The notes: a model not told the origin generated them from the sequence alone. A stretch of 64,000 nucleotides of DNA from Dehalococcoidia bacterium (GCA_965207115.1 CBDBLR010000003.1:122674-186673), one strand, 5' to 3'. Numbered from the stretch's first letter, positions 2,258 to 35,832 are shown. Made by a program: numbers and translations.

Positions 2258-2294
2258 CAGGGGGAGGACACCGCATCGTGGTGTCCTCCCCCTG
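2258..2294. terminator. 15-bp perfect hairpin between convergent genes
   Basis: cagggggaggacacc / ggtgtcctccccctg at the end of the long minus-strand operon. Confidence 0.65.
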
Positions 2295-2332
2295 TGTGTT
2301 GCTGCCCAGCAATTCCCGTCCGACCGACTCCT

Positions 2333-2827
2333 CTAGAACAGCCTCAGCGTCTCCGGCTGCTGCTCCGCCTCTCCTTCGGCGGCCTCGGCCTGCGCCGTCC
2401 CCTGTCCACGCCGGTTCCGGCGTCTGGCCGGGGGAGCGGGTCTCGCGTGCGCCGGGTACTTCGGTTCCTCCTCCCACTTGGCTCTCGCCCGTTCCACCAC
2501 CGCCAGGGTCTCCTGCGCCAGCCCTGACAGGCCCATGTCGTCGAACGTCTCGATGTGCGGGTCGGACGACGGCTGTTGCACCCCGATGGTGGCCCTGCCT
2601 CCCTTGATGGACACGACGACCTTCAGGTCCTCGGACGAGCCGGTCTCGTCTCCAACGGCCTGCTCATCGGCGTCGTCAGCACCCTGCGGTTCCTGTGCGG
2701 TCTCCTCGTTGGCGTCCTGCTCCTCGGCAACAGCGGCTTCATTGTCGTCCGCCGCTTCGCCGAAGAGACTCTCGTCTGCGCTCGGGGCATCCGAGCGGGT
2801 TGCGTCCGTTCCAACTTCGTTATGCAT
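2333..2827 (-). CDS. Acidic hypothetical protein (possible PRTRC protein E analogue)
   Basis: RBS aaggagag before ATG; last gene of the operon; acidic low-complexity N-terminus with a small folded core. Confidence 0.7.
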   Translation of the reverse strand: MHNEVGTDATRSDAPSADESLFGEAADDNEAAVAEEQDANEETAQEPQGADDADEQAVGDETGSSEDLKVVVSIKGGRATIGVQQPSSDPHIETFDDMGLSGLAQETLAVVERARAKWEEEPKYPAHARPAPPARRRNRRGQGTAQAEAAEGEAEQQPETLRLF

Positions 2828-2863
2828 GGTCTCTCCTTCCCTTGATTCTTCTCTGGCCCTTGC

Positions 2864-3256
2864 TCAGGCCGCGAGCCTCGACTGCCTCCTGATCTCACCG
2901 AGGGTCTGCGGCTCCCAGTAGAGGTCGCGCTCCACGGCGGGGACGCCGCCGAACACGGTCGCCTCGGCCATCTCCGAGAGATCGAAGTACCCCAGTTCCG
3001 TCTCGAACCCCTCGACGAGGCCGAAGCAGAGGCCGGTCTCCGCATCCCATTCCGTGATGTACCAGGTCCAGTTGGCATAGGGGCTGAACAGCTTCACCCT
3101 CGCGACGACGGCGTCGGGGTCGTCCGCGCCGTCGTTGGCGTACAGGGGCGGGATGGTGTCTGCGAGCTCCTTCGTCATGAGCTTGTGCCTGCGGAGCCCG
3201 CTGTGATTGTCTTGCCACATGGTCGTGGCCGTTGTGGTTCCGTTTGCGTCAGTCAT
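2864..3256 (-). CDS. DUF2958 family protein
   Basis: KLFSPYANWTWYITEWD...FGLVEGFETELGYFDLSE...ERDLYW motif; RBS aaggag. Confidence 0.8.
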   Translation of the reverse strand: MTDANGTTTATTMWQDNHSGLRRHKLMTKELADTIPPLYANDGADDPDAVVARVKLFSPYANWTWYITEWDAETGLCFGLVEGFETELGYFDLSEMAEATVFGGVPAVERDLYWEPQTLGEIRRQSRLAA

Positions 3257-3304
3257 TGGTTTCTCCTTCTTTATTCGTTCTCTCGATGTGTTCGCTTGCG
3301 CCGA

Positions 3305-4105
3305 TCACTCGACGTAGGTCCCCACCGTCCGCTCCACCGCTTCCGGCGTGACGTAGGTGGGTGTGACCGTCCCCAGGTCCATGTCCAGGTAGAGGGCCAT
3401 GAAGGGGCAGGTGCCCGCCACCATGCGGCGCACCACCTGGAGCACCAGCGAGGCCATCATCTGGTTGATGGTGGGGTCCTGGTCGGTGAGGTCGAGGGCC
3501 GCCGCACAGTCCACGTCGGGCGGCCTGGTCGACACGGCGGTCAGCAGGTCGGGCCGCTGGAGCGTGGGCGCGGGGGCCAGGTAGCAGGTCTCGCCCGAGA
3601 AGGGTGGCTCGTCCCAGCTCACGTTGCCGGAGACGTTGCCGACGAGGACCTGTCCCCAGTTGGTGTCGTTGCCCGCGTCCATGAGCCACCGTCGCGGGTC
3701 GCCCGGCAGGGTCTCCGCCATCGCCTTCCGTGCGAGGGCATTGTCGGCGCAGCCGATGATGAGGCTCTCCCGGTAGGCGGGCAGGCCGGGATAGCCGTGC
3801 TGGTGGGGCTGGTCGTCATACTCCTTGAATGGGTACACCGAATAACCCACTGGCCTCCCGTAGGCTTTGGCCAGCCGGTCGGCCAGCGCTTCGCTCTTGA
3901 AGCGGCCCAAGTCTCCTGCGTAGAAGTTCTGGCGCAGCAGGTTGTGGGGCTCCACCCGGTCGTGGTCGACCAGGACGATGTTGGCCTGCCGCCCCTGGAA
4001 GAGTCGGCAGAGGCCCTCGGCGACGAAGCCGCCGGTCCCGCCGCAGCCGACCACCGTGATCCAGGGGTCGTCCAGCAGGAAGGCGTTGTCCAGGAAGTAT
4101 GGCAT
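3305..4105 (-). CDS. PRTRC ThiF-family E1-like activating enzyme
   Basis: VVGCGGTGG nucleotide-binding loop, DHDRVEPHNLLRQ, GCADN, DAGN and a candidate catalytic Cys in DVDCAAAL. Confidence 0.9.
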   Translation of the reverse strand: MPYFLDNAFLLDDPWITVVGCGGTGGFVAEGLCRLFQGRQANIVLVDHDRVEPHNLLRQNFYAGDLGRFKSEALADRLAKAYGRPVGYSVYPFKEYDDQPHQHGYPGLPAYRESLIIGCADNALARKAMAETLPGDPRRWLMDAGNDTNWGQVLVGNVSGNVSWDEPPFSGETCYLAPAPTLQRPDLLTAVSTRPPDVDCAAALDLTDQDPTINQMMASLVLQVVRRMVAGTCPFMALYLDMDLGTVTPTYVTPEAVERTVGTYVE

Positions 4106-4108
4106 CGC

Positions 4109-4765
4109 TCACTCACCCCCTTCTATTGGATTGGTTGTGTCCGGTTCCTCGCCCACCAGCCGGAGGCCGGGGTTCGGGCCGTCGAAGACCTGCGACCACG
4201 ACGCCGGGGCGAAGTGGCCGTAGACGCCGACCCGGATGCTCAGCTCGGGCCGGTCGGTGTCGAGGCGTCCAGCGACGCCGTATACCCGGAAGCCCTGCTC
4301 GTCGCCGTCGTCGGTGGCCGAGAAGAAGGCGCGGGAGCGTCCGTGGGAGTGGAACTCGGCCACCACCCCTGCGGGCGGCCGGTACTTGAGCCGCGTCGCC
4401 GTCCCTTCCTGCTCGGGAACCACCAGCCGGTAGGAGCGCCCGTCCCACCGCACGGCGAAGAACCGCTCGGTGTCCGGGTCGTCCTCGAACCAGCGCAGCC
4501 CGATCTCGAAGAGCCTTGCCGGTATGGTGCCGTGGGCAAGCTCCACCTTCTCTGCGACGGGAGCGAGCCCCCGCACCTCGCAGGACGCGACGAGCACCCG
4601 CGCCGTCAGGTGGGCGCTCTCGGACTGGACGTAGAGGCCGCCCCCTCCGAGCACGTAGTCGTAGCCGACGCCATGCGCTCCGGTCAGCCCCTCTTTGCGA
4701 TTGACGAGGTAGCCGACGGGCGTCGGGCGGTCGGTAGCGGCAGGCCCGCTGCTAGCGGTAGCCAT
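4109..4765 (-). CDS. PRTRC protein A, JAB/MPN metalloprotease
   Basis: EFHSHGRSRAFFSATDDGDE (HxH...S..D JAMM motif); start reassigned to ATG at 4765. Confidence 0.85.
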   Translation of the reverse strand: MATASSGPAATDRPTPVGYLVNRKEGLTGAHGVGYDYVLGGGGLYVQSESAHLTARVLVASCEVRGLAPVAEKVELAHGTIPARLFEIGLRWFEDDPDTERFFAVRWDGRSYRLVVPEQEGTATRLKYRPPAGVVAEFHSHGRSRAFFSATDDGDEQGFRVYGVAGRLDTDRPELSIRVGVYGHFAPASWSQVFDGPNPGLRLVGEEPDTTNPIEGGE

Positions 4766-5462
4766 AGCCCCGTCTCCCCTGGGATGCCTCGATGACCTGG
4801 GCCACCGTGCACTGGGGAACAAGGTCCTCAACCGGGTATTCAGTCTGTCCATCCAACTCCTCCCACAGTTCGATCAGGTTTTCGGGGTGCTTCTTCGACC
4901 GCTCCCGGCTGTCCCCTGTAAGGGAAAAGAAGGACTGGAAGAAGGACTCCGGTATCCGTCCCACATCCGCGGGGAAGCGGTGGCTTCCGGGGCAGACCCG
5001 CCCGTCCCTGAAGACGTTGAAGGCCGGGGCCCGGAAGAGCTGCTGCTCTGCGTTGGTCGGTCGCTCCAGGGCCGCGTAGGCCCAGGGGGCGCGGCCCGGC
5101 GAGCAGACGAAGACCAGTCCCGGCATGGGAAGCCGGAGCCGTGCGGGGGGCTTGAACGCCTCCCGTTGCAGGGCCACGGGCCAGACCTGGGGCGGCCTCC
5201 AGAGGGCCACCACCTGCCCGGTCTCGCCCTGATTCCACCAGAGAGCGTCCTGGGGCAGCAGCCCCGAGGAGAACCCCAGGTGTTGGGTGAATACGTTGGC
5301 GATCTCGTCCGCCGAGACGGTCCGCACCCAGTCGGTGTCGCCCTGGAAGCCCCGCAGCAGGAGCGTCTCGTCGTAGACCTCAAGCTGGAGTTGGAGCTTG
5401 TCCCTGGGCATCTCATCAGGGCCCGGCAGGGACCATTGAGTCGTGTCGGGTTCATTGCTCAT
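4752..5462 (-). CDS. PRTRC protein B, prokaryotic E2-like conjugating enzyme
   Basis: LPMPGLVF...LFRAPAFNVFRDGRVCPG with a candidate catalytic Cys; start ATG at 5462 after aaggagg. Confidence 0.85.
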   Translation of the reverse strand: MSNEPDTTQWSLPGPDEMPRDKLQLQLEVYDETLLLRGFQGDTDWVRTVSADEIANVFTQHLGFSSGLLPQDALWWNQGETGQVVALWRPPQVWPVALQREAFKPPARLRLPMPGLVFVCSPGRAPWAYAALERPTNAEQQLFRAPAFNVFRDGRVCPGSHRFPADVGRIPESFFQSFFSLTGDSRERSKKHPENLIELWEELDGQTEYPVEDLVPQCTVAQVIEASQGRRGYGYR

Positions 5463-6291
5463 GGTCGTTGTCCTCCTTGTCTCCTTCGCAAATCCGCGCG
5501 AGGGTGAAATCCAGCATCTCGGCGAACCGGCCGGGGAGGTCCTCCTCCAGCCAGTCGGCCAGCTTGCACACCGAGTCCATGAGGGCATTGGCCTTTCGCC
5601 ACTCTTCCGTGCCCTCGGCGATGATCTCGTCCTCCCAGGGGTCGGCGAAGCCGTCGAACGACCCATCGTCATAGCAGTTGTCGAGGAAGAAATTGCCGGT
5701 CTCGGCGAGGACCCAGGAGGCGGCCTTCGCCGCCCCCTCGAACCGGGTGTCCTTCACCGCCTCGGTGAGGGCCTCGACGGGTATGCCCCCTTGGGGCACT
5801 CGTTGCAGGGTCTCCTGCGGGATGTGCTCTGCGGCCGACTCCAGCCACGCCACCCGCAGCCCGTCGGGGCCGTCGTAGTAGGCGTCGGGCGGCCTTACCA
5901 GCAGGGCCATCGCCGAGAGACCCTCGCGGTAGCCGTTCCACATCTCGTGGAGGCCGTCGTAGCCGAAGCCCATCAGGTCGAAGGGGATGCCCCTGCGCAG
6001 CCATGACCAGGGCGGTTCATCCCCGTCTTCGAGGAAGAACTCGAAGTAGGGCTGGTACAGGGGGAAGTGCCGCTCCCCGAAGAGATTGGCGAAGCGCTCC
6101 ACCCTCGTGCGCACGTCGGGGGCCGAAAGCGCCGCCTCCCCCTCGTTGGGAAAGAGGCGGCGCACCAGCTCCGTGAACCATGCGTAGTCGTCGGCGTAGC
6201 CGATCACGGTCACCAGCTCCCGCAGCGACGGCGGACGCCGCAGGAGTTTTTCAGCCAGACCGCTCAGGAGCGCCGGGGCCGCAGCCGCCAC
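5452..6291 (-). CDS. Hypothetical helical protein in the PRTRC cassette (protein F position)
   Basis: Overlaps both neighbours in the operon and has protein-like composition; family assignment is positional only. Confidence 0.7.
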   Translation of the reverse strand: MAAAAPALLSGLAEKLLRRPPSLRELVTVIGYADDYAWFTELVRRLFPNEGEAALSAPDVRTRVERFANLFGERHFPLYQPYFEFFLEDGDEPPWSWLRRGIPFDLMGFGYDGLHEMWNGYREGLSAMALLVRPPDAYYDGPDGLRVAWLESAAEHIPQETLQRVPQGGIPVEALTEAVKDTRFEGAAKAASWVLAETGNFFLDNCYDDGSFDGFADPWEDEIIAEGTEEWRKANALMDSVCKLADWLEEDLPGRFAEMLDFTLARICEGDKEDNDHEQ

Positions 6292-6494
6292 CGCAGCGCC
6301 TCCTTCAGCCGCCCCGTGGCCGAGGCGTAGTCCTGGGCCTGGGCGCAGGCCATTTCGATGTCCTTCTGCCGTGCGGCCGCGGCGTCCAGGTCGAGGGAGC
6401 CGTCGGGCCGTGTGAGCTCCGCCGTGAGCTCGATGATGCGCAGGGCCGTTGGTGGGGTGACCGCCAGCAGCCCTGCAAAGGTGCGGGTGTCCAT
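6264..6494 (-). CDS. Small hypothetical protein
   Basis: Strong RBS taaggagg; lies directly after the Ubl gene. Confidence 0.7.
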   Translation of the reverse strand: MDTRTFAGLLAVTPPTALRIIELTAELTRPDGSLDLDAAAARQKDIEMACAQAQDYASATGRLKEALRWRLRPRRS

Positions 6495-6506
6495 CGGATG
6501 CCCTCC

Positions 6507-6704
6507 TTACCAGGTGAAGGTCCCCTTGGTGCCCACCCGCCGCTGGAACTCGTAGACGGTGTCCTCGCCGCGCTTGGTCTCTTTCACCGAGGCGTTGGCG
6601 ATCTCCCCGTAGAAATCGCTCAGGGTGCTCTTCACCTGGTCGACGGTCATCTCGGAATCGGGGTCCGGGAACTCTCTGTCGTCATACACGAACACTCTTG
6701 CCAT
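6507..6704 (-). CDS. PRTRC protein C, ubiquitin-like protein
   Basis: RVFVY...FPDPD...Y.EIANA...YEFQRRVGTKG signature, followed by TFTW; RBS aaaggag. Confidence 0.88.
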   Translation of the reverse strand: MARVFVYDDREFPDPDSEMTVDQVKSTLSDFYGEIANASVKETKRGEDTVYEFQRRVGTKGTFTW

Positions 6705-6779
6705 GGCTGATCTCCTTTGTGTGAGTTGGTTGTTTTGCTGCGTTGCCGTCTGCGGCGACCGCTCCGTTGCTGCTGCGGT

Positions 6780-9119
6780 CTAGCGTCCCGCGCCGACCGG
6801 CTCCTTCTCTCGCTCCTGCTCCATCGCCCACTCGAACATCGAGAGGCTTGCGGGCTGGGGCTTCCCGTTGCGCCGCTTGGGCTTGACCGGCTCCTCGGCC
6901 ATGAACTCCGCCCAGGAGAACAGCGACTGCTGCGGCTCCGGGTCCTCGTCGTGGTGGCCGTTGGCCCCATTGCCGTTGGGGTGACTGTTGGCCGGGACGA
7001 GCTCGACCGTCGGCCCAAACAGGTCGTCGTGGTGGCCGTTGCCGTTCCCGTTGACCGGGACCGTCTCAGGCTCGATCTCGACGACCTTCCAGCCGTTGTC
7101 CACCAGCAGCTCCTCGGCCTCGCTCACGGCGTTCCGCGCCTGGGCGAAGACCTCCTCCATCGTCTCGGCCTCGTCCTCCTCCTCGCCGCTGACGATCTTG
7201 CGGGCCAGGGCCATCATCATGTCGTCGCCGTCGTCTCCGTAGGCGGCGAGGCCGTCCTCCGGCAACTCCCCCTCGACGGCCAGGGAGCTCTGCATCTTCT
7301 TCGCCACCAGCTTCAGGGCGTCGGCCTGGAGCGTGTTCCGGTAGCTCATGAACACCACCTTCACCGGGCGGGTCTGCCCGATGCGCCACGACCGCCGCGA
7401 CGCCTGCCGGACCACGTAGACGCTATAGTCCGTTTCGTCCCAGACGATTGTTGGGAAGTCGATGAGGTCGAGGCCCGTCTGCACCAATCGCGGGTGGCAG
7501 ATGAGGACGTCGATGCCCTGCTTCACCTTGTCCGCCACCCACTTCTCCCTGCGGTTCGGGGCCACGGCGTCGGCCTTCATCACCGCCACCCGGAAGCCGT
7601 GCCGGGTGAGAATGTCGTCCATCCGCCCGGTGATGTCCGGCGTTCCCGTATGGGTGACGTAGACTAGAACCCTCCGTCCCTCCATACGCTCAGCGGCCAC
7701 CAGGTCGATGAGCGCCTTCTCCTTCGGGTAGAGCTTCTCCTCGGACAGGGGCGGCACCTGCACGATCACGTCGCCGCTGCGGGGGTCGAAGACCGTCTCC
7801 CCCTTGGTGCAGCCGTCGGGGTAGGCCAACAACGTTTGCAGGTAGGTCGCCAGCAGCCGCTTGGAGCCGCTCTTGAGTGCCGCCGCCAGCTCCTTCTTCA
7901 GCTCCTCGAACACGGTGTTGTAGGCCGTGCGCTGGGAGTACCCGGTCGCGTCCTCCTCCGAGTCCATCGAGGACACGAGGATCTTCTCCTCGTAATCCGG
8001 CAGGCCGGAGGCAACGTCCGCCAGTCTCAGGAAGACGGTGTTGCCGATGATGTGGAACAGGGCGCTGGGCACCAGGCCCGGCCTCTCCCTGGTGACCTTG
8101 CGGTAGCTGCGGCGTCGGCTGTTGCGCCCGTCCTCCACCGCGTCGTCGTCGGGCTTGCCGACGGTGACTTCCTCGAAGCCGTACCGCTGTATCCAGCGGT
8201 GCTCGTCGGAGCGTCCGAACTCCGTCCTGATCTCCGGGCTGAACCGGTAGAGGAGATGGAAGATGGTCGAGGAGTACCCTCCCAAAAGGGTCCCGGTCAG
8301 GCTGAGGGACTTGCCGCACACGTCGGCGAGGATGCCCGCGGCGATGCCCTGTGCGGAGCCTCGCCCCTTAAATTCATGCACCTCGTCCCCGATGAGCAGG
8401 TCGAAGAAGCCCCGCATCCGGTGCTTTATGTAGTCGGCCAACGGGTAGCGGGCCGGGCCGGACCTGTCGGCCTGCCAGAGGGGGGCGTCGCAAGTGGCGC
8501 AGGTGTGCTTGCGGCGGTTCAGGTCGGCGTCCGTGAGGGGCACGCCGTCCTTGTCCACGATCTGCGCGGTGCAGTCGGGGCAGCAGGGGACCCGGAAGGG
8601 CTCCCCCGTCTCCTCTTCCCTGATGAGCCTGCCCCTGGACGTGGCCCACCGCTCGATGTAGGCGGGCATCCAGCGGTAGGACAGCTTTGCCTTCTCCCGG
8701 CTCATCACCGCGAAGAGGGGACCGGAGCCGACGGAGAGGCGCAGCCGCTCCAGGTCGGTGATGGACTCGACGATGGCGGCGCGGACGCCGGGCACCGTCT
8801 GCTCGATCTCCCGCTTCCACTTGGGAACCAGGTGGGGCGGGCAGATGATGAGAATCCTCTCTAAGCCCGCCATGTATGCCGCCGCCGCGCCGATGAAGGT
8901 CTTTCCCGTACCCATCTCCCCAACGACGGTGGTGCCCCGGTGGGCCTTCAGCGAGAGGGCCGCGCCCCTGATGGCGTCGGCCTGCGCTCCCAGGGGCTTG
9001 CGGAGCAGCCTGGGCAGCGTCCCGCCGTTCTCCGAGGGCCGGTAGAGGGGCGGGTAGGACTCGACCACCCTCCTGGCCATCGCGTCCTTGAACGTGTCTA
9101 TGAAACCTCCGAGGTTCAT
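6780..9119 (-). CDS. SF2/SNF2-like helicase with Zn ribbon
   Basis: GEMGTGKT, DEVH, TGT, TGLDL and QASRRSWRIGQ motifs; CPDC...CATC. Confidence 0.9.
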   Translation of the reverse strand: MNLGGFIDTFKDAMARRVVESYPPLYRPSENGGTLPRLLRKPLGAQADAIRGAALSLKAHRGTTVVGEMGTGKTFIGAAAAYMAGLERILIICPPHLVPKWKREIEQTVPGVRAAIVESITDLERLRLSVGSGPLFAVMSREKAKLSYRWMPAYIERWATSRGRLIREEETGEPFRVPCCPDCTAQIVDKDGVPLTDADLNRRKHTCATCDAPLWQADRSGPARYPLADYIKHRMRGFFDLLIGDEVHEFKGRGSAQGIAAGILADVCGKSLSLTGTLLGGYSSTIFHLLYRFSPEIRTEFGRSDEHRWIQRYGFEEVTVGKPDDDAVEDGRNSRRRSYRKVTRERPGLVPSALFHIIGNTVFLRLADVASGLPDYEEKILVSSMDSEEDATGYSQRTAYNTVFEELKKELAAALKSGSKRLLATYLQTLLAYPDGCTKGETVFDPRSGDVIVQVPPLSEEKLYPKEKALIDLVAAERMEGRRVLVYVTHTGTPDITGRMDDILTRHGFRVAVMKADAVAPNRREKWVADKVKQGIDVLICHPRLVQTGLDLIDFPTIVWDETDYSVYVVRQASRRSWRIGQTRPVKVVFMSYRNTLQADALKLVAKKMQSSLAVEGELPEDGLAAYGDDGDDMMMALARKIVSGEEEDEAETMEEVFAQARNAVSEAEELLVDNGWKVVEIEPETVPVNGNGNGHHDDLFGPTVELVPANSHPNGNGANGHHDEDPEPQQSLFSWAEFMAEEPVKPKRRNGKPQPASLSMFEWAMEQEREKEPVGAGR

Positions 9120-9300
9120 GTGAGTCGTCCTCCTTATCCGTGGTGGGCCGGAGGACGACGCCGGGACCCGGGACGCACCACGCCCCCACGAGGGGACGTC
9201 AGTGTGTCCCGGGTCCCTGGTAACGTCCCCAGGCGGTTGCTTGAACGTGCGAGACCCGCGCAGCCGGCGGGCCTCGTGAGTGCTGCTCGGTGCGGGCCGT

Positions 9301-9510
9301 CTAGGCGGCTTTCAGTGCCTCCCTGCGGGCGGCTTGTTCGGCCTTTGCATCCTCGTAACAGCGTCCCGTCAGGTGGTATGCCTTCACCGGCGAGGAGACG
9401 GCCCTTCCGTAGTCGTTGATGTCCACCGAGGCGGTCTGCATAACCGGCTCGCCGGGAGCGATGGGCTTCCCGCACCGGCAGCAGTTCTCCATTGTCATGG
9501 TCGTCTGCAT
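9301..9510 (-). CDS. Small Zn-finger-like protein
   Basis: CCRCGKPI...HLTGRC; RBS aaggag upstream. Confidence 0.6.
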   Translation of the reverse strand: MQTTMTMENCCRCGKPIAPGEPVMQTASVDINDYGRAVSSPVKAYHLTGRCYEDAKAEQAARREALKAA

Positions 9511-9627
9511 CGTCCTGTCTCTCCTTTCCCTGGTAAGAGGGTTGTCGGGAATCGTTCCGATAGAGCGAGGCCCCGCAGGTCGAATGAAACCAACGGGGCC
9601 TTGTGGGTGCGGCTCCGGGTGAGCCGT

Positions 9628-10677
9628 CTATGCCGCGATGTCCTCGATTCGTCCGTCGTCCAGGTCTAGGGCGACGACGGTCGTGTTGAGCTTCTCGCGG
9701 TGGACCTCCTTCTCCGGGGCGTCCTCGACCATCACCATCTCCTTGCTGGTGCGGCCCTTGACCAGGATGCGTCTGCCTTCGCCTTCGAGCACGAGATTGT
9801 CGAGGAAGCCCGCCGCCACCAGCATCGCCATGTGCCCCCGTCTGAGGGGCATGAGCGGCCGGGTGCGGCTGTCGTTCGCGGGCCACAGCGAGTCGGTGAT
9901 CTCGGTGCTGGCCCACAGCCCCGACCGCCGCGCCTCGGCAGCCGCCGCGGCCGGATCGACGGTGCGGGTGGTGAACAGCACGTCCCCGCTCGGCGTCGTG
10001 GCCGGTGTGTACTCCGGGTAGGAGTAGGAGTTGCGCCGGGAGCGCAGGGGCTCCGGCTCACCCACCGCCCACTCCAGAACCATGCTCTCGGCGGCCGCGT
10101 CGGGGACGGGGTCCGTCTTCCGGTAGCCCATCAGGACCACCTGGTCGAAGACCTCCCGCTCCGGGTCGGGGAAGGCCCAGCACCGCAGCCGCCCGTAGTG
10201 GGTGGACAGGTAGCGGGCCGAGACCGCGAGACGCTGCCTGGGAACGATGAAGACCAGCAGGCCGCTCTCGGCCAGGTAGCGGGTGGTGTGGGTCAGGAAG
10301 GCGTGCTCAGTCCGCTTGTCCTCCGAGTCGTAGTCGTACGGTGGGTTGAGGAGCAGCAGGCCGAAGGCCCCGTTCGCTATCGATGTGGCGAACAGGTCCG
10401 AGGACAGGGTGCGGTGGAGCCGCTCCTCGGCCTCCTCCGCCCGGTCCCGGTGCAACTCCACGCCGTAGGTCTCGATGGACATCGAGTTGGGCCGGTCGAG
10501 GTTCTCGGCCAGCCTCTGGAGCGCGTCACCGCCCCCGCAGCAGGGGTCGAGGACGCGGATGGTCTCCCGCTCCCGGTGGTAGTAGCCGGAGGGGGTGTGA
10601 ATCAGTTCGGCGATCAGGTCCACCACCCGCTCCGGAGTCGGGTAATAGCCGCCTTTCGCCTGTGCAGCCAGTCTCAT
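9628..10677 (-). CDS. Orphan amino-DNA methyltransferase (DUF6094-like)
   Basis: GYYPTP, VLDPCCGGG SAM motif and NPPY catalytic motif. Confidence 0.88.
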   Translation of the reverse strand: MRLAAQAKGGYYPTPERVVDLIAELIHTPSGYYHRERETIRVLDPCCGGGDALQRLAENLDRPNSMSIETYGVELHRDRAEEAEERLHRTLSSDLFATSIANGAFGLLLLNPPYDYDSEDKRTEHAFLTHTTRYLAESGLLVFIVPRQRLAVSARYLSTHYGRLRCWAFPDPEREVFDQVVLMGYRKTDPVPDAAAESMVLEWAVGEPEPLRSRRNSYSYPEYTPATTPSGDVLFTTRTVDPAAAAAEARRSGLWASTEITDSLWPANDSRTRPLMPLRRGHMAMLVAAGFLDNLVLEGEGRRILVKGRTSKEMVMVEDAPEKEVHREKLNTTVVALDLDDGRIEDIAA

Positions 10678-10710
10678 GTCGGTTCTCCTTTCTCTGGGTC
10701 TCGTGCCGCG

Positions 10711-11118
10711 TCATGCGGCGATTGGGATGTCCTTGGGGCGGTGGTCGAGCCCGACCACCTCGCCGACGGCCAGGTTCCGCTGGTAACAGAGGACCTGGTG
10801 AGTGCCGATGCTCTCGGCGCAGGCCGTGCAGAAGGCGGTGATCAGCTCGGCGCGGCTGGCGACGGTCATCCGGCGCACCAGCACCGAGCCTCCCTCCGGC
10901 AGGTTGTGCCGGTAGAGCATGAGTTGGGGGTCGCGCCGCTCGGCCTCTGTCGCGGGACGGAAGAAGTGGGGCTGGCCCGAACTCATCAGGTGCTCGGTGT
11001 TGTCGTGCGGGCAGAAGCGGCAGGTCTTCCCATCGGAAGAGAACCGCCGCCAGGCGTCGTAGTTGCGCTGCCCCCGCCGCTTGCTGTGGCGCTTCGCCTT
11101 CTTCAGCGTCCTATCCAT
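10711..11118 (-). CDS. Hypothetical Cys/His-rich protein
   Basis: CRFCPH...H...CTAC...C; ATG at 11118 overlaps the end of the upstream gene. Confidence 0.65.
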   Translation of the reverse strand: MDRTLKKAKRHSKRRGQRNYDAWRRFSSDGKTCRFCPHDNTEHLMSSGQPHFFRPATEAERRDPQLMLYRHNLPEGGSVLVRRMTVASRAELITAFCTACAESIGTHQVLCYQRNLAVGEVVGLDHRPKDIPIAA

Positions 11119-11761
11119 CGGACACCTCCCTGGGCAGGGTGAGCTTGCCCGACGCAACGGCGTAGGACAGGTCGTCCCGCAACCTCTTGGCGTTGGGGGA
11201 GCACCGGTAGCCGGAGACGCCGACGCTCTGGAGAGGGGTGACCTCCCCCTCCTCGATGCCCCGCTCCCAGAGCCATCCGGCCCAGGAGTCGTGGAGCGGC
11301 AGCGGGCTGCGCTTGTCGAGGAAGCGGTGATGGAGCGCCGGAGCCTCCTCCGGCGACTGCGCCAGGAGAAGGAAGCTGTCCTTCTCGTAGCCGTACTCGG
11401 CGGTCTTCGTATACACGAGGGCGTGCCACCCGCCGGTGGCGGGCAGACGGGCGATCTTGGTCGTCCAGGTGCCGATAGTCTCGTAGGGAATCACGCACCG
11501 TTGGTAGCCGCCCTGCAGCGCCATGCCGTCCGCGCCGCGTATCAGGTGGGCGACGTCCGGGGGCTGCTTCAGCAGCGACGCCCAGATCGCCTTGAGCGCC
11601 GTCTGGGAGCCGACCATCGAGACGAACCAGAGGCCCTCGGTGCGGTCGTCGCGGGCGAAGGCGTCGGCGGTGGCGCTGAAGCCACCGGCGCTTATCGTGA
11701 ACAGAGCCTGCCCCGTACTCGATACGGGGGCTTCGGGGTCTATGACGTTGGTCTGGAGCAT
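11111..11761 (-). CDS. Conserved ICE hypothetical protein upstream of the methylase
   Basis: RBS aaaggag and ATG at 11761; WFVSMVGSQTA and SPLPLHDSW motifs resemble proteins that precede ICE methylase-helicase pairs. Confidence 0.75.
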   Translation of the reverse strand: MLQTNVIDPEAPVSSTGQALFTISAGGFSATADAFARDDRTEGLWFVSMVGSQTALKAIWASLLKQPPDVAHLIRGADGMALQGGYQRCVIPYETIGTWTTKIARLPATGGWHALVYTKTAEYGYEKDSFLLLAQSPEEAPALHHRFLDKRSPLPLHDSWAGWLWERGIEEGEVTPLQSVGVSGYRCSPNAKRLRDDLSYAVASGKLTLPREVSDG

Positions 11762-11859
11762 GATGGATCTCCTTTCGCTTTGTGGGTTGGAACCGGTGCA
11801 CGGGGGGCGATGCCCCCGCGTGAGACGCCCGACGGCGCAGGCCGTCGGGACGTGGCGGG

Positions 11860-12408
11860 TCAGCCCATCAGGCCCCGCTCCTTGAGGCTGACGAAGCGGT
11901 CTCCGCCGATGACGATGTGATCGAGCAGATCGATGCCCAGCAGCTTGGCGGCTTGGGACAGCTCCCTGGTGCAGGCCGCGTCCTCCGGGCTGGGCGTGGG
12001 GTCGCCTGAGGGGTGGTTGTGGCAAACGATGATGTGGGGGACGACCTCGACAACGGCGGGCCGCAGCACCTCGGCGGGCCGCACCATCGACGAGTTCACG
12101 TTGCCCTGGTAGACGACCCGCTGGCCGACCACGACGTTCTTGGTGTTGAGCAGCAGCACCCGCAGCTGCTCCTGGGCCAGGCCGGACATCTCCGGCGCGA
12201 GCAACCTGTGAACATCTTCGGGGGTCGTGACCGAGGGCGGGGCGTCCGACCGTTCCGGCTGGACCTCCACGCCGTAGCGCAGCGCGATCTCTCCCAGGAG
12301 GTCCAGGTTGTTGCGCAGGGCGTCCAGCAGCGCCTGCCCCTCTGACTGGAAGAGGGAGAGCTGGGAGCCTGTCGATCGGGTGTCGGCGCGTATCGCTGTG
12401 GCGGACAT
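11860..12408 (-). CDS. radC: RadC-family JAB protein
   Basis: QEQLRVLLLNTKN, HNHPSGDPTPSPED, LLDHIVIG. Confidence 0.92.
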   Translation of the reverse strand: MSATAIRADTRSTGSQLSLFQSEGQALLDALRNNLDLLGEIALRYGVEVQPERSDAPPSVTTPEDVHRLLAPEMSGLAQEQLRVLLLNTKNVVVGQRVVYQGNVNSSMVRPAEVLRPAVVEVVPHIIVCHNHPSGDPTPSPEDAACTRELSQAAKLLGIDLLDHIVIGGDRFVSLKERGLMG

Positions 12409-12526
12409 GAGGGCCTCCTTGCCTATCGGTTAGAATAGAAGCGGGGCCGCCTCCTGTAGATTGGGAGCGACCCCGTGGTGGTGCGCCCGGTGGGAGGCCG
12501 GGCGTCGCTTTTCGGTTGTGCAGCGG

Positions 12527-12892
12527 CTAGAAGGGGGAGGCGTCCTCCGCCTGCCCGGCGTGCCCGTTGCCGTTGCCGTCGAGGAACACGACCTCGGAGG
12601 CGTGGACCTCGGTGCGGTGGCGGCGCTGGCCGTCGTCGGTCTCCCAGGTGTTCTGGACGAGGCGGCCCGCGACGTAGATGCGCTGCCCCTTGCCGACGTA
12701 GTTGTTGACGGCCTCGGCGAGCCCGGCCCAGCACGTCAGGTCGTGCCAGTCCGTCTCGGTCTCCCCGTTGGAGCGGGGCCGGTCGGTGGCCAGCCGCAGC
12801 TTGGTGACGGCGGTGCCGTTCGGGGTGTAGGTCATCTCGGGGTCGGTCCCGACCCTGCCCAGCAGCTCTACCTTGTTGATCGTCCGTGACAT
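12527..12892 (-). CDS. ssb: Single-stranded DNA-binding protein
   Basis: NKVELLGRVGTDPE, TDWH, KGQRIYVAGRL and an acidic EDASPF tail; ATG at 12892 after aaggagg. Confidence 0.95.
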   Translation of the reverse strand: MSRTINKVELLGRVGTDPEMTYTPNGTAVTKLRLATDRPRSNGETETDWHDLTCWAGLAEAVNNYVGKGQRIYVAGRLVQNTWETDDGQRRHRTEVHASEVVFLDGNGNGHAGQAEDASPF

Positions 12893-13010
12893 TGTTCTGT
12901 CCTCCTTATGGATGGTGTGGCGCGGTCTTCCCGCGCCCGTCTGAAATGAGAGCGGGGCCGCTCCCATAGATGGGATGACGACCCCGTCCTGCGCCCCTGT
13001 GAGGGAGCGG

Positions 13011-14108
13011 CTAGCTGACCCGGACGTACTCCGACTCGCTCTCGGTGACGATCTCCGCCCTGGTCTCGGGGTCGAGCGCCTCGTTGAGCTTCCGGTGGTT
13101 CACGGAGTACCGTGTCGTCTGCACGAGGCTGACCGTCTTTCCTCCGACGGTCGCCTTCGCGTCCCCCTGGCGGCGCATCCACGCCTTCAGGGTGTCCAGC
13201 GCGGTGCGTTTGGCCTTCTCAGGTTCCCTGATGGACTCCTGGGCCTCTGCGTAGGCCGTCACCGCGTCCCTTGCCTCCTCGTCCGTCACCTCCTGTTCCT
13301 CGATTGCAGGCTGTTCGCCGGCCTCCGCCGACCCCGGCAGGCAGACGGCCAGGAAGGGGCAGGAACGGCACTGCCAGGAGTCGGCAGTGAAGTCTCTGTC
13401 GGGCAGCGCGTCGGGGTCGGCCCCGTGCTCGACGTAGTGGGCGGTCAGCCCACTCAGCCACTCGCAGGCGTCCTGCAGGGCCGTCTCCAGCCGTTCGGCG
13501 GGTATCCGCTCCCAGTCCCAGGTGCGGTTGCCTGTGTCCATCGTTGCGATGACGGCGGCCCGCATCTCCCCGAACTCGCCTAGGGTGTAGAGGGCGGCCT
13601 GGGCCACCGCCGCCGGGTGGCTGCGCTCGGCCCCAAGGGTCTGCCAACGCTTGAAGGCGTCCGGCCCCCGCGTCTTGATCTCGACGACCATCGGGTCGCC
13701 GAAGGCGGGAGTCTCCGGTTCGTCCTCGAAGAGGAACACCTGCGGCGTGGCCGCCTCGTCTTCCGATAGCGGGAGCCGCACCGTGCCGTCGGGGTGTCCC
13801 GTGACCAGCAGGTTGGGGCCGACCCTCGCCGCCACCTGCTTCGGGTCCTGGGAGTCGGCGGGATCGACCTTCCAGCCCGCCCGTTCCATCGCCCGCACCA
13901 CCACCGGCTCCAGTGCGTTGCCCGCCTCCATCGCCGTCAGCGACTCCTCGCTGGGGGGATTCGTGGGCCGGTAGTTGGTCGCGGCGTACCAGAGGGCGCG
14001 GCGGCAGCCCAGGGCCGACGATGCCCGCACCACCAGTTCGCCGTCCTCGTTTATCTGCGCAGCGGGGCGGGAGAAGACCTCCGCCCTGTCCGTGGTCTCT
14101 GTCGTCAT
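13011..14108 (-). CDS. Cas4-like PD-(D/E)xK exonuclease with predicted Fe-S cluster
   Basis: ASSALGCRR, GHPDG, EIKT, QxxxY and CRSCPFLAVC; alternative start at 14144. Confidence 0.85.
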   Translation of the reverse strand: MTTETTDRAEVFSRPAAQINEDGELVVRASSALGCRRALWYAATNYRPTNPPSEESLTAMEAGNALEPVVVRAMERAGWKVDPADSQDPKQVAARVGPNLLVTGHPDGTVRLPLSEDEAATPQVFLFEDEPETPAFGDPMVVEIKTRGPDAFKRWQTLGAERSHPAAVAQAALYTLGEFGEMRAAVIATMDTGNRTWDWERIPAERLETALQDACEWLSGLTAHYVEHGADPDALPDRDFTADSWQCRSCPFLAVCLPGSAEAGEQPAIEEQEVTDEEARDAVTAYAEAQESIREPEKAKRTALDTLKAWMRRQGDAKATVGGKTVSLVQTTRYSVNHRKLNEALDPETRAEIVTESESEYVRVS

Positions 14109-14140
14109 GGTTCTCTTTCCTTTCCCCTGTAGATGAATGG

Positions 14141-14536
14141 TCATGCGGCGGCCTGCACTCGCTCCGCCTCCCGCTGCCTCTCTGGCTTCAGGTGGGCCTT
14201 GAGGATGTGGGCGATGCCGTCGCCGAGGCTATGGACGGGCACGCTCCTGCCGTCGCCCATCTGGTTCCAGAACGGCTGCATCTCCTGGATGCCCTGCATC
14301 TGGCCGATGACCTCCTCCAGCGGGGTTCCCCTGCGCAGGTGCAGGGAGATGAGGCGGCAGGCAAGCTCGGTGACTCCGTGCTGGAAGCTCCCCCCTTTGC
14401 CGAGAAATCCGAAGACCTCGAATGGCTCGCCCTCCTCGTCCACGGAGACGGTCACGAACAGGTTTCCGAACTCGGTTTGCAGCTTCGTGGTGGTGCTAGG
14501 CAGGCTGCGGGGCCTGGGCCGCGTCGTCGCGGTCAT
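14141..14536 (-). CDS. Stand-alone TSCPD-like domain (class II RNR C-terminal homologue)
   Basis: RPRSL...GNLFVTV...PFEVF..LGKGG...RLISLHLR.G...SLGDGIA; ATGA overlap with the upstream gene. Confidence 0.75.
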   Translation of the reverse strand: MTATTRPRPRSLPSTTTKLQTEFGNLFVTVSVDEEGEPFEVFGFLGKGGSFQHGVTELACRLISLHLRRGTPLEEVIGQMQGIQEMQPFWNQMGDGRSVPVHSLGDGIAHILKAHLKPERQREAERVQAAA

Positions 14537-15012
14537 GGCCTTCCTCCAATCCCCCGGCAGAGCGGGAGCGCGCCCTCGCAGGAGACGGCCTCCCACCGCC
14601 CGGTGTCGGCGAACGCCTCGGCCTCCTCCGTGGTGTCGAACCGTCCGATGGGGTCCGCCGCGCAGCCGCCCAGGTGGGCGACGACGTGGTAGTGAGGCGC
14701 ACAGTCGCGGAGGAATGGGAGAGCCGGAGCGGAGCGGTCGAAGTAGCCCGCCACCTTCAGGGCCATCTCCCGGTCACGGGCGTCGCCGACTCCCAGGAGC
14801 GTCCTGACGATGGGCTCCTCGCAGTCTTCCTCGGCGAAGGTTGGGGTGAACATGGCGTCCCGCAAAGCGGCGGGCAGCTCGTTCCACCGCTCGCGGCTGA
14901 GCTTCAGCCCGCCGTGGTTCGGCGTCGTGACTCGCCAGACGCCCTCGGCCAGCTCCTCGATGTCCTGTGTCCAGCCCCAGGGTGTGCTTACCAGGGTCTC
15001 AGTCGTTGTCAT
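14533..15012 (-). CDS. Hypothetical protein (DUF7007-like)
   Basis: TPWG...GVWRVTTPNHGGLKLS...EEDCE motif; RBS aaggagg. Confidence 0.65.
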   Translation of the reverse strand: MTTTETLVSTPWGWTQDIEELAEGVWRVTTPNHGGLKLSRERWNELPAALRDAMFTPTFAEEDCEEPIVRTLLGVGDARDREMALKVAGYFDRSAPALPFLRDCAPHYHVVAHLGGCAADPIGRFDTTEEAEAFADTGRWEAVSCEGALPLCRGIGGRP

Positions 15013-15108
15013 GGCTCATAGCCTCCTTGTCCTGTAATGAAGGAGCGGGGCAGCCCCCCGAATGGAGACGGCCTCGCTCTCGATTCCGAACCCGATGGAC
15101 CGGCAGGC

Positions 15109-15999
15109 TTAGGCCGCCTTCGCCTGCTGCATCTGCCGGAGCTTGTTGGCGGCGGCCTCCACCAGCGGCCCGAGCTCGGCGGCGTCCAGGTCGTCGATGT
15201 CCTTGCTCGTCCGGTCCTTCACGGCTGTCCGCACCAGGGCCTCGTTGAGGCCCTGTTCGGCGGCGATCTCGATGAGCCGCTTCCGCAGCTTCACGACCTG
15301 GGCCTCATTGCGGTCGTTGGCCTGATTCCGGGCGGAGTTGCCGTTGGATTGGGCCTGGCCGGACTTGCCGTTTGCCTGAGCCTGGGACTTGCCTCCGGCG
15401 TTGGCCTTGGCGGGGACGCGCTCCGGCTGGGCCGAGCCGTTGGCCGGGGACTGATCGCCGTAGAAGCCGTTGCCGAACTGGCAGCCGAAGCTGCGGAAGG
15501 CACGCTTCATGCCGTCCGTGACCGACCCCTTGATGGCCGTGTCGTGCCCGTCGAAGGTGTCCTCCGTCACCGGGTGGACGCCGACGTCGGTGCGGGGCAG
15601 CGCGCCCGCCACCGTGACCCGGACGGGTGCGCTGTAGCCCCGTTCCACCTTCACTTCACCGGTCTGGGGGTTGACCGTCTCGATCCGGCGCAAAGTAACG
15701 TCGCCGACCAGTTCGTAGCCCCAGCCGCCGTAGCCGAAAATCCTGTTGGCCTGGTCGATAACGGCGTGGCCTTCGAGGTAGTCGAAGGTCCTGCCGCCGC
15801 GCCCCTTGCGCTGGGAGACCAGATCGGGGTCGATGGGCTGTCCGAGCGCCTGGCTGACGGCGGGCGAGAGCCCATCCCACAGCAATTCGTGTCCGTCGAT
15901 AATGGCGGGGTCGTTGTGCGCCCCGTTGCCGTTGCGCGAGGCGACCGCGGCGCCGTTGTGGGCGCCGTTTCCGTTGTTGTGTCCGTTCCTGTTCACCAT
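15109..15999 (-). CDS. Rad52/Rad22 (Sak-like) single-strand annealing protein
   Basis: YLEGHAVIDQANRIFGYGGW and KGSVTDGMKRAFRSFG.QFGN motifs. Confidence 0.92.
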   Translation of the reverse strand: MVNRNGHNNGNGAHNGAAVASRNGNGAHNDPAIIDGHELLWDGLSPAVSQALGQPIDPDLVSQRKGRGGRTFDYLEGHAVIDQANRIFGYGGWGYELVGDVTLRRIETVNPQTGEVKVERGYSAPVRVTVAGALPRTDVGVHPVTEDTFDGHDTAIKGSVTDGMKRAFRSFGCQFGNGFYGDQSPANGSAQPERVPAKANAGGKSQAQANGKSGQAQSNGNSARNQANDRNEAQVVKLRKRLIEIAAEQGLNEALVRTAVKDRTSKDIDDLDAAELGPLVEAAANKLRQMQQAKAA

Positions 16000-16198
16000 G
16001 TCTGCCTCCTTCTCTCTGTGTGGTGTGTTCCTGTAGCGATTGGTTGTTGCGGGTCCTTCTACGGGAACCCGTGCGCGGGCGAAGCCTGTCGCGCATTGGG
16101 CATAGGCCCTCCTCAGTGGTCAGAGTGGGGATGGGTGAAGCGGGAGCGAGCCCCGCAAGCAAGCGAGCTGGGGAAGCCCGGTAGATGGGAAAAAGCCG

Positions 16199-17245
16199 CT
16201 AGCGGGCGGAGCGGGCCGCCACAGCAAGCAGGCGGAGGAAGGCGGCGCGTCCGTCTGGCCGGGCAGCCAGCTCGGCCACGTCGCCGATGCCTTCGGGGAG
16301 GGCGATGGCGGCGGCCCTGCGTCCGAGCAGGGTCAGAAGCCCGTCCGTCGCCTCGCGCCCCGCGTCGTCGTTGTCGAATGCGAGGAAGACGCGGGGGCAG
16401 CCCCGGAGGGCCGAGGCGACCCGCTCCATGCCCTGGGCGCCGAGGGCGGCGACGGATGGGAAACCCCATCCGGTAAGGAGGAGCCAGTCGAAGACGCCCT
16501 CCGTGACGACGACCCACGGGGGAGCGGGGCCGAGCCTGCCGAGTCCGAGCACCGGCTTGGGGCCGGGAAGGGCCTGGAACCGGGGCATTGCGTTCTGGTC
16601 CAGGGCCCGGCCCTTGAGCCAGCGGACGAGGCCGCCGGAGGCGTCGGGGACAACGACCATGCCGGCGAATCGCTCCGCTCCCCGCTCCATGAACAGCCCG
16701 GAGTCTCGGATGCGCTTCTCGGAGAAGCCGAGGGACTCGAGAGCCTGCCGCAGCCCGGCTCCCGGCGCGTAGCCGAGGCCGAGGCGGGCTGCGGCGACCG
16801 GGCCGACGCCCCGCGAGTCCAGGTACTCCCGCGCTTCTATCGAACGCCGGAGCATTCCGGCGTAGAAGCGCGCCGCCGCCGTCAGCAGGGTGGGGTCCCG
16901 GGGAGGCAGCGCGGCGGACGCAGGACGCCGCGTTCGGGCTGGACGAAGGGTGGCCCTGGGCGCAAGCCCTGGGCTGCCGTCCAGCCGCGCGATGGCCTCG
17001 GGCAGCGACAGGTCCTCAGACCGCTGGATGAAGTCCAGCACGTCTCCGCCCAGACCGCACCCGAAGCAGTAGAACCGCTCCGAATCGGCGTACACCGTGA
17101 AGCTGCCCTCGACCTCGTCGTGGAAGGGACAGACGCCCTGGCGGACCCTGCCCCGACCCCTGAGACGGACCCCCGACGCCTCGACCGTGTCGCCCAAGGG
17201 GTGACGGGCCTTCAGCGCGGCGATGTCCACGTTGGCCGTGACCAT
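16199..17245 (-). CDS. DnaG-type primase (CHC2 Zn finger + Toprim)
   Basis: CPFH...CFGC, VTEGVFD, FDNDDAG; start ATG at 17245 or GTG at 17248. Confidence 0.9.
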   Translation of the reverse strand: MVTANVDIAALKARHPLGDTVEASGVRLRGRGRVRQGVCPFHDEVEGSFTVYADSERFYCFGCGLGGDVLDFIQRSEDLSLPEAIARLDGSPGLAPRATLRPARTRRPASAALPPRDPTLLTAAARFYAGMLRRSIEAREYLDSRGVGPVAAARLGLGYAPGAGLRQALESLGFSEKRIRDSGLFMERGAERFAGMVVVPDASGGLVRWLKGRALDQNAMPRFQALPGPKPVLGLGRLGPAPPWVVVTEGVFDWLLLTGWGFPSVAALGAQGMERVASALRGCPRVFLAFDNDDAGREATDGLLTLLGRRAAAIALPEGIGDVAELAARPDGRAAFLRLLAVAARSAR

Positions 17246-17721
17246 CACGCACCTCCGGCCAGCGGCCTGAGCCCCCGGAGGCTGCGCCCGGAGACGACCT
17301 TGCCCGGCCTCCAGCGCATCCCCATGACCGCCGCGACCTCCAGCGTTCCGCCGTCGCCGTGGGGCACCAGCGCAGCGGCCCGTCCGGTGCCCTGGCTGTA
17401 GACCAGGGCGCCGCGGCCGCCGAACCGCCGCTTGACCAGCTGCTTCCACTCGGAGAATGCCCACCGGGCCTCCCTCGGCGTCGCCTTCTCCGAATCCACA
17501 CTTCCCAGCACCGCCAGTGCGGTGTCGATGTCCCCCGCCTGCCTGAGGCGCCGGGCCTCGTGGATCGAGCGCACAGCGCTCGGCTCCGTCTGCGTCTCCC
17601 GCTCATCCCCGAACCCCATCGCAGCGAAGAGCTGGTCGACCAACTCTTCGAGGCTGCGCCGGGGCCGCGCCGTCTCCGTGTTCATCGTCCGATTGCCTGC
17701 TACCAGTGTCGCCGTCGTCAT
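17245..17721 (-). CDS. Hypothetical protein
   Basis: RBS taaggaggt; stop overlaps the primase start. Confidence 0.7.
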   Translation of the reverse strand: MTTATLVAGNRTMNTETARPRRSLEELVDQLFAAMGFGDERETQTEPSAVRSIHEARRLRQAGDIDTALAVLGSVDSEKATPREARWAFSEWKQLVKRRFGGRGALVYSQGTGRAAALVPHGDGGTLEVAAVMGMRWRPGKVVSGRSLRGLRPLAGGA

Positions 17722-35822: not shown

Positions 35823-35832
35823 CTACTTACAA

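Follow-up and report, generated by a model that had tools for sequence, protein, structure and literature searches.

A ParB-less, divergent branch of type 6d (PRTRC-like) ubiquitin-like conjugation cassettes in a DNA-processing operon of a Dehalococcoidia conjugative element

Gene content, conservation, and operon of the cassette

We analyzed a stretch of 64,000 nt from Dehalococcoidia bacterium (GCA_965207115.1, CBDBLR010000003.1:122674-186673; genome G000, C3 in our numbering), called the window below, and in it a cassette of genes for a ubiquitin-like protein (Ubl) and for E1-, E2-, and JAB-type enzymes. The cassette is an intact, ParB-less, divergent branch of a known kind of operon, type 6d or PRTRC (named for ParB and ThiF), which was predicted in 2006 and has apparently never been tested. 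It consists of eight co-oriented, tightly packed open reading frames (ORFs) on the minus strand (Table 1), at the positions given in the original prediction, which was made from the sequence of the window alone. The junctions from the Ubl gene down to the gene for an acidic protein are +12, -28, -14, -101, +3, +48, and +36 nt, negative values being overlaps, and the overlap of 101 nt places the start of the JAB gene inside the end of the E2 gene. The catalytic residues had been described as apparently intact, and the E2 cysteine motif, the JAMM motif of the JAB protein, and the nucleotide motifs of the E1 are indeed all there. We found no match for the 76-amino-acid (76-aa), 279-aa, and acidic proteins in Pfam, NCBIfam, or PADLOC.

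Table 1. Features of the cassette and of the co-directional genes upstream of it, in window coordinates
Feature	Coordinates	Strand	Basis or content
Ubl precursor, 65 aa	6507..6704	-	Prok_Ub, 53 bits (cut-off, 25)
76-aa helical protein	6264..6494	-	no family match
279-aa all-alpha protein	5452..6291	-	no family match
E2-like protein, 236-237 aa, catalytic Cys158	4752..5465 (open frame up to 5672)	-	Prok-E2_D, 61.7 bits (cut-off, 25)
JAB/JAMM metallopeptidase, 247 aa	4109..4852	-	Prok-JAB, 24.5 bits (cut-off, 25); exact HxH-x7-S-xx-D
ThiF-type E1, 266 aa	3305..4105	-	ThiF, 45.5 bits (cut-off, 28.1); GxGGxG and DxD..N..RQ
DUF2958 protein, 130 aa	2864..3256	-	PF11171, 40.4 bits (cut-off, 21)
Acidic protein, 164 aa	2333..2827	-	no family match
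Perfect 15-bp inverted repeat, 7-nt loop	2258..2294	.	immediately beyond the stop of the last gene
Upstream part of the co-directional block	6780..17464	-	primase, Rad52-like, DUF7007, TSCPD, 377-aa ORF, single-stranded DNA-binding protein (SSB), RadC, 304-aa ORF, DUF6094 methyltransferase, SNF2 helicase

A second copy of the cassette lies in a full element in the same 2.1-Mb genome and is colinear with the first over 4.4 kb at 83.5% DNA identity. Between the two copies, the ratio of nonsynonymous to synonymous substitution rates (dN/dS) is 0.14 for the Ubl, 0.52 for the 76-aa protein (from only 18 changes), 0.24 for both the 279-aa protein and the E2, 0.51 for the JAB protein, 0.18 for the E1, 0.15 for the DUF2958 protein, and 0.32 for the acidic protein. 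Database relatives of the E2 at an E value of 0.001 or less number 1,122 among 1,542 candidates. With one genome taken per species, 181 encoding loci were obtained, and the best 80 were kept for all counts over 80 loci given in this study. These best 80 of the 181 comprise 79 loci labeled Dehalococcoidia, SAR202, or Chloroflexota and 1 short contig labeled Gammaproteobacteria. The genes for the 279-aa protein, the E2, and the JAB protein are found in the window's order in all 80 loci, those for the Ubl, the 76-aa protein, and the SNF2 helicase in 77, those for the E1 and the DUF2958 protein in 76, and that for the acidic protein in 75, some of the loci being cut by contig ends. Since the order is kept in 75 to 80 of the 80 loci and the second, colinear copy has dN/dS values of 0.14 to 0.52, the cassette is beyond chance.

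The residues expected to carry out conjugation are kept across these loci. The Ubl contains G[TA]KG in 77 of 77 loci, followed by a variable tail of 4 to 10 aa. The JAMM motif, HxH-x7-S-xx-D, occurs in 76 of the 80 loci and matches the motif of Burkholderia PRTRC_A, and both nucleotide motifs of the E1, GxGGxG and DxD..N..RQ, are present in 76 of 76. The E1 cysteine is found in 72 of 76 loci and aligns with the cysteine of three canonical PRTRC ThiF proteins. In the E2, all 18 aligned sequences share C158 and H162, and the catalytic cysteine lines up with its counterpart in three annotated PRTRC_B proteins. The pattern for the E2 cysteine motif matched 65 of the 80 loci; because 4 of the 15 misses are in the alignment and retain C158 and H162, we attribute the misses to a differing residue ahead of the cysteine and not to loss of the cysteine itself.

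When 401 Chloroflexota genomes were searched with the 279-aa family, 10 proved to carry it, including the window's own genome and G227. Six distant loci, which come from five of the other genomes and represent other Chloroflexota lineages, carry the core of the cassette at 26 to 62% protein identity, so the six genes for the Ubl, the 76-aa protein, the 279-aa protein, the E2, the JAB protein, and the E1 travel as a unit across Chloroflexota elements. Genes for the 304-aa ORF, the DUF6094 methyltransferase, and the SNF2 helicase are linked to this core in every distant locus but one (five of six); the exception, L103, is a short contig. DUF2958 is absent beside the core in all six and the acidic protein is likewise outside the six-gene core, which makes these two proteins lineage-specific neighbors of the Dehalococcoidia-type cassettes only. 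In one distant locus (L107, 6210-9271), the E2 gene is interrupted by an insertion of ~2.4 kb.

The cassette forms part of a long operon for DNA processing, or "establishment," in a conjugative element that circulates among Dehalococcoidia/SAR202. We found no terminator-like site between 17786 and 2333 on the minus strand, and the hairpin at 2258..2294 is likely the end of the operon. The integrative and conjugative element (ICE) that had been proposed as the setting is there, with genes for TrbL/VirB6, a type IV secretion system (T4SS) pilin, VirB4/TraC, a coupling protein, a Replic_Relax relaxase, and a large serine recombinase at 20 to 35 kb, where the conjugation genes lie on the strand opposite to the cassette. 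Two sister ICEs of the same genome, whose VirB4 proteins are 87 to 88% identical, are without the block from SSB to E1; one of them instead holds a helix-turn-helix regulator, a PLD-SNF2 helicase, and an Eco57I-type methylase at the corresponding side of the T4SS genes. A partial element at the contig start contains DUF2958, SSB, RadC, methyltransferase, and SNF2 genes and ends before the cassette. Overall, at least four more related ICE copies or fragments are present in the genome (G000 C3:2017193-2051800, 1890400-1911000, 1694300-1712800, and 1-6929), only one of which has the Ubl cassette. The 304-aa ORF of the operon (11111-12025) belongs to no known family and adjoins the methyltransferase and SNF2 helicase genes in Dehalococcoidia-type and distant elements alike.

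The Ubl precursor, the helical protein, and the relation to PRTRC

The Ubl consists of a beta-grasp core that extends to the invariant GTKG (G61) and of a 4-aa tail. In five of the six distant loci (L102, L104, L105, L106, and L107), the Ubl and a homolog of the 76-aa protein form a single ORF of 129 to 135 aa, and in the sixth the Ubl frame continues for 300 aa. The fused ORFs align colinearly with the separate Ubl and 76-aa proteins. An AlphaFold2 (AF2) model of one fused protein (mean predicted local distance difference test score [pLDDT], 79.4; predicted template modeling score [pTM], 0.46) has a beta-grasp domain, a linker with a pLDDT below 50 precisely at residues 57 to 62, the G-T-K-G site, and a separate helical domain; the top Foldseek rows for this model are ubiquitin, NEDD8, and a bacterial Ubl, with E values of only 0.14 and above. 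In the 77 Dehalococcoidia-type loci, the Ubl and 76-aa genes are split by a stop codon (TAG in 42, TAA in 33, and TGA in 2) and a spacer of 4 to 14 nt (166 nt in one locus); the 12-nt spacer of the window contains GGAGG. Relative to the Ubl gene, the 76-aa gene is in frame 0, 1, or 2 in 31, 33, and 13 loci, respectively, and since there is no frame preference, we take the split to be a gene fission with independent translation and not a site of read-through. The 76-aa protein is thus the detached C-terminal domain of an ancestral Ubl precursor, and the variable Ubl tails are the remnant of the linker. This natural fusion/fission pair links the small ORF to the Ubl precursor and offers a testable handle.

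Eukaryotic ubiquitin precursors include ubiquitin fused to ribosomal proteins. As in those proteins, the tag here is the N-terminal part of the fusion, a cut after its C-terminal glycine is needed, and the cut would free the second protein in equal amounts. In contrast to the eukaryotic fusions, the partner is a helical domain of 73 aa, and the fusion has been split into two genes in the lineage of the window. Of the canonical PRTRC_C proteins, two end exactly at the glycine and one has a tail of 3 aa, and a BLASTP comparison of the 76-aa ORF with the 72-aa ORF of the Burkholderia cassette found no similarity.

The original prediction had assigned the cassette to the PRTRC type. When NCBIfam was searched, the PRTRC models (TIGR03734-03742) were the best matches of all four conserved proteins: PRTRC_C (TIGR03738) matches the Ubl with 45.5 bits against a cut-off of 45.95 (E value, 6e-12), the last position of the profile being G61; PRTRC_B (TIGR03737) matches the E2 with 68.7 bits (cut-off, 131.45); PRTRC_A (TIGR03735) matches the JAB protein with 55.8 bits (cut-off, 101.8); and the PRTRC ThiF model (TIGR03736) matches the E1 with 92 bits (cut-off, 144.75). 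We found no match to PRTRC D, E, or F in the 15 unassigned ICE proteins scanned at an E value of 10 or less, and hhalign comparisons of the 279-aa family with PRTRC_F and of the acidic family with PRTRC_E gave probabilities below 1%. Thus, relatedness to PRTRC, in gene order and in best-matching models, holds up, and membership as defined by the NCBI cut-offs does not.

The description of the "fourth operon type" by Iyer, Burroughs, and Aravind in 2006 (PMC1779556, Table 1, row 6d) lists a Ubl with a C-terminal glycine, a rapidly diverging protein that is mostly alpha-helical, an E2-like protein with a conserved Cys and a conserved His further downstream, a JAB protein with an additional N-terminal domain, and an E1-like protein, and it places such operons in beta-proteobacteria, Bacillus, cyanobacteria, and Bacteroides. 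In the window, the Ubl is recognized by the Prok_Ub model and has an invariant G61, here followed by the short tail; the E2 has the invariant C158 with H162 downstream, a candidate for the histidine noted by those authors; an all-alpha AF2 model is obtained for the protein encoded between the Ubl and the E2; and the JAB protein has an N-terminal region of ~150 aa that aligns with Burkholderia PRTRC_A and is a candidate for the JAB-N domain of type 6d, in which an Arg and a Trp residue are conserved. Annotated PRTRC cassettes of Burkholderia gladioli bgla_4p and Ralstonia insidiosa pRI-1 have the order ParB, E, C, a small ORF (72 or 75 aa), F or a 295-aa hypothetical protein, B, A, and ThiF. 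Since these cassettes have an ORF of 72 to 75 aa and a protein of ~300 aa at the corresponding places, the 76-aa and 279-aa ORFs of the window occupy two standard positions of the cassette. These two ORFs had been singled out as unknown candidate adaptors or substrates; they are not free-standing novelties, as both have canonical counterparts by position and the smaller is fused to the Ubl in sister elements.

The window and the PRTRC/6d cassettes therefore share the same four enzyme and tag families, the same order (Ubl, small ORF, helical protein of ~300 aa, E2, JAB, E1), a Ubl core that ends in G-x-K-G, and carriage on conjugative elements. Unlike PRTRC cassettes, that of the window has an SNF2 helicase and a DUF6094 methyltransferase as partners instead of ParB, no recognizable D, E, or F protein, a helical protein from a separate family that lacks a Pfam or NCBIfam model, a Chloroflexota host, and a monoderm-type T4SS. 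We consider it very probable that the cassette is a genuine conjugation system of type 6d (PRTRC-like). Annotated cassettes of this type occur on plasmids and ICEs from many phyla, and the earlier statement that their targets have not been established agrees with our literature search, which found no experimental study of PRTRC and no experiment on tagged targets. A 2024 preprint (PMC11601603) names CBASS, Bil, and Bub as three bacterial operon families shown to conjugate, and "PRTRC" does not occur in its main text.

By position, the 279-aa protein corresponds to PRTRC_F, known in type 6d as the "novel alpha-helical protein." At 50% identity, the family of the 279-aa protein comprises 506 representatives with E values of 0.001 or less, and 57 diverse members gave no meaningful Pfam or NCBIfam match. 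The AF2 model of the 279-aa protein is confident and consists entirely of helices (pLDDT, 91.5; pTM, 0.85). Against solved structures, the best Foldseek E value for this model was 0.4, with none at or below 0.001, and the best Z score in an exhaustive VIA comparison was 4.5, under the noise level for helical proteins. Its near-invariant positions are largely occupied by Pro, Phe, Gly, and Trp, with H115 in addition, and not by charged residues. A UBA-like signal at residues 149 to 202 (PDB profiles 1vek, E value of 0.15, and 2cpw, E value of 0.89; Pfam UBA_7 in 1 of 57 members, E value of 0.051) is not significant in any of these comparisons, and a possible UBA-like three-helix unit near residues 150 to 200 is a lead only. 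A tblastn search of 72,556 plasmids with the 279-aa protein gave no match, and a Pfam scan of nine longer homologs for fusions gave nothing informative; two of the longer homologs, a helicase-C chimera and an IstB chimera, appear to be artifacts of assembly or gene calling.

The original prediction had also noted that no ParB is encoded nearby, and this absence extends to the whole genome. A six-frame search with PF02195 (ParB_N) gave no match at an E value of 0.001 or less in the 2.10-Mb genome, which is 92.9% complete, and the same search was positive in 10 of 14 control genomes. Five other carrier genomes do have ParB matches, none of them on the cassette contig except in the one-contig genome G197, where the only match is ~76 kb from the cassette. 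The core, as this branch shows, does not require ParB, which is a second testable handle, and the 92.9%-complete genome seems to lack a chromosomal ParB as well.

Candidate roles and the sliding clamp

By homology to known conjugation enzymes, the cassette could work as follows. The Ubl would be made as a precursor, with a 4-aa tail here and with the whole 76-aa domain in sister elements, and the JAB peptidase would cut past the invariant GTKG and expose Gly61. The ThiF-type E1 would adenylate Gly61 and probably transfer the Ubl onto the conserved E1 cysteine, after which the Ubl would be handed to Cys158 of the E2 and then to a target lysine. The best candidate for a specificity or adaptor subunit would be the 279-aa helical protein.

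The only specific functional clues that we found are suggestive of the sliding clamp. The acidic protein begins with a disordered acidic region, followed by a conserved domain of small size and a basic stretch. At its C terminus is [QE]TLRLF, which is present in 73 of 75 loci and resembles the clamp-binding consensus, Q-L-x-L-F. All six distant loci contain a DnaN-like gene whose product is 32 to 35% identical to the single DnaN of the host, and this gene lies directly upstream of the Ubl gene in four of them; in one other locus it is located between the E1 gene and the 304-aa ORF, and in the remaining one it is ~6 kb away. In the Burkholderia locus, a truncated beta-clamp gene is located 6.5 kb downstream. 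Because the cassettes of sister elements are accompanied by a clamp gene of the element itself and the last gene here encodes a C terminus like those that dock onto clamps, a role at the replisome or sliding clamp during replication or establishment of the element, and not in ParB-type partition, is possible, at rather less than an even chance. The window and its sister elements tie the cassette to the DNA sliding clamp and so provide a third testable handle; if the link holds, mobile elements would manage replication by Ubl tagging, unlike the anti-phage use of such tagging by Bil and CBASS. The N-terminal 40 residues of the acidic protein contain [DE]xL[FIV]G, which is also clamp-peptide-like, in 61 of 75 loci. 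The small ORFs that follow PRTRC_C end in D-L-P-M-V-F in Burkholderia (L087, 8524-8742) and in D-L-P-I-L-G in Ralstonia (L108, 8450-8677). Six DnaN-like matches on separate contigs of the Chloroflexota genome G015 are perhaps more element-borne clamps. The 377-aa ORF was considered as a hidden clamp and found no support, and BLASTP of the acidic protein against PRTRC_E gave nothing, the alignment of the acidic family with PRTRC_E scoring 0.3%.

We also predicted the complex of residues 125 to 164 of the acidic protein with the host DnaN. It scored 0.57 (0.57, 0.58, and 0.54 in separate runs; 0.00 for the best of three controls), with a partner pLDDT of at least 41 and agreement between runs in at least 49% of contacts, a result graded as weak support. 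In calibration, 58 of 80 solved complexes attained the mark, as did 2 of 110 mismatched pairs; only 7 of the 80 solved complexes, together with both mismatches, attained it at or below 0.60. A score in this band is rated as more often wrong than right unless the guess is likely beforehand. Moreover, because clamp-peptide complexes have already been solved, the pass may mirror mere likeness to them.

Overall, the best explanation is a complete, selectively maintained type 6d conjugation system inside the establishment operon of a conjugative element, a reading that we hold tentatively, at a little under an even call. Alongside the limits of the docking score, several points weigh against it. 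Each biochemical step above is inferred from homology, all four PRTRC matches are under their curated cut-offs, and the Prok-JAB match is 0.5 bit beneath that of Pfam. Alignments made with hhalign of the 279-aa family with Burkholderia PRTRC_F, the Deinococcus 271-aa, Pseudomonas 424-aa, and Ralstonia 295-aa proteins gave probabilities of 0.1 to 0.7%, and its near-invariant Pro, Phe, Gly, and Trp residues support neither an adaptor nor an enzymatic role. Since the sister ICEs share the T4SS and are yet without the block, the Ubl module is optional for this T4SS type. As for the clamp, [QE]TLRLF has T or A where the consensus has Q, the acidic protein is outside the six-gene core, and no DnaN-like gene was found in the fetched flanks of the 80 Dehalococcoidia-type loci, so the link is indirect for the window. 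A more specific version, in which the cassette would be the equivalent in bacteria of PCNA ubiquitination, placing the Ubl on the clamp or on clamp-bound replisome proteins and letting the incoming or excised element remodel or take over the host replisome, is unlikely. In such a pathway, clamp-docking accessory proteins (the acidic protein here and the element-encoded clamp elsewhere) would bring the E2 to its substrate, and the 76-aa domain freed from the Ubl precursor would be a stoichiometric cofactor.

Other roles can be set against the same evidence. The original prediction had raised anti-defense as a possibility; such a role would be played in the recipient, with early expression from the incoming ICE DNA and tagging of host defense proteins to inactivate or mark them. 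The co-directional block does hold genes for SSB and an orphan-type methyltransferase, two of the classes reported to be enriched in plasmid leading regions (PMC11541004), and the canonical Burkholderia cassette adjoins genes for an N-6 methylase, a Lar restriction-alleviation protein, and DUF1173. The main text of that survey of leading regions, however, does not contain the word "ubiquitin," and the specific clues that we found point instead to the clamp, so we regard anti-defense as somewhat unlikely; the PADLOC results, with no match beyond the Rossmann part of the E1, are uninformative about it either way. The cassette might instead be anti-phage cargo that works like Bil by placing the Ubl on phage structural proteins, with the ICE as a mere carrier. 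The related E1/E2/JAB/Ubl systems, Bil (BilABCD) and type II CBASS with Cap2/Cap3, are defense systems (PMC11601603) that likewise combine a Ubl or Ubl-like C terminus with an E1, an E2, and a JAB protein or deubiquitinase and carry out true protein conjugation, and the sister ICE with the PLD-SNF2 helicase and Eco57I-type methylase has restriction-like genes at the corresponding side. In contrast to Bil and CBASS, the window has an E2 of Pfam family D, the additional helical and 76-aa proteins, and a location in an ICE replication/recombination operon rather than a defense island. In PADLOC, no family was matched by the Ubl, the E2, or the JAB protein, and only residues 10 to 82 of the E1 match E1-E2 models. 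The core also stays in the same operon with methyltransferase, SNF2, and replication/recombination genes from 26% to more than 90% identity, as a backbone would and a hotspot would not, and the sister ICE swaps the whole establishment block and not the cassette alone. Defense cargo of this kind is thus decidedly unlikely.

Partition or maintenance of the element, as the name PRTRC implies, would fit the dedicated ParB-family gene that directly precedes canonical cassettes, and a preprint (10.64898/2025.12.11.693706) names these cassettes ParB/ThiF partitioning systems. With the genome-wide lack of ParB_N, its absence from the cassette contigs of other carriers apart from the distant match in G197, and an integrative element that has its own serine recombinase, such a role is very improbable here. 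Least credible is sulfur-carrier chemistry of the ThiS/MoaD type with no protein conjugation: the Rossmann part of the E1 does match ThiF and MoeB models as well, but an E2-like protein with an invariant cysteine and a JAB peptidase are constant companions, the operon is without sulfur-metabolism genes, and the Ubl is produced as a precursor or fusion.

Sequence surrounding the cassette

The element has a G+C content of 0.66 to 0.70, compared to 0.607 for the genome, and no att repeats were found between the two ends of the ICE. Contigs from a metatranscriptome run (X20) that are at least 80% alike (916 placed) cover 29 of the 30 bins of positions 1500 to 13000; such libraries may contain DNA, the contigs cannot show transcription, and the uncovered bin (1500-1883) is likewise no finding. 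A second, partial element occupies positions 39275 to 51538 of the window and encodes a coupling protein, a Replic_Relax relaxase, an ApeA-like protein, and another large serine recombinase. We saw no genes for a T4SS channel there. Between the two mobile elements (34980-39249), we found genes for a DUF4238 protein and for a 1,138-aa restriction-modification enzyme that resembles Type ISP, in a stretch of low G+C content (0.55 to 0.57). Positions 1 to 1383 contain a flanking host-like gene whose product has a leucine-rich repeat and seven RCC1 repeats.

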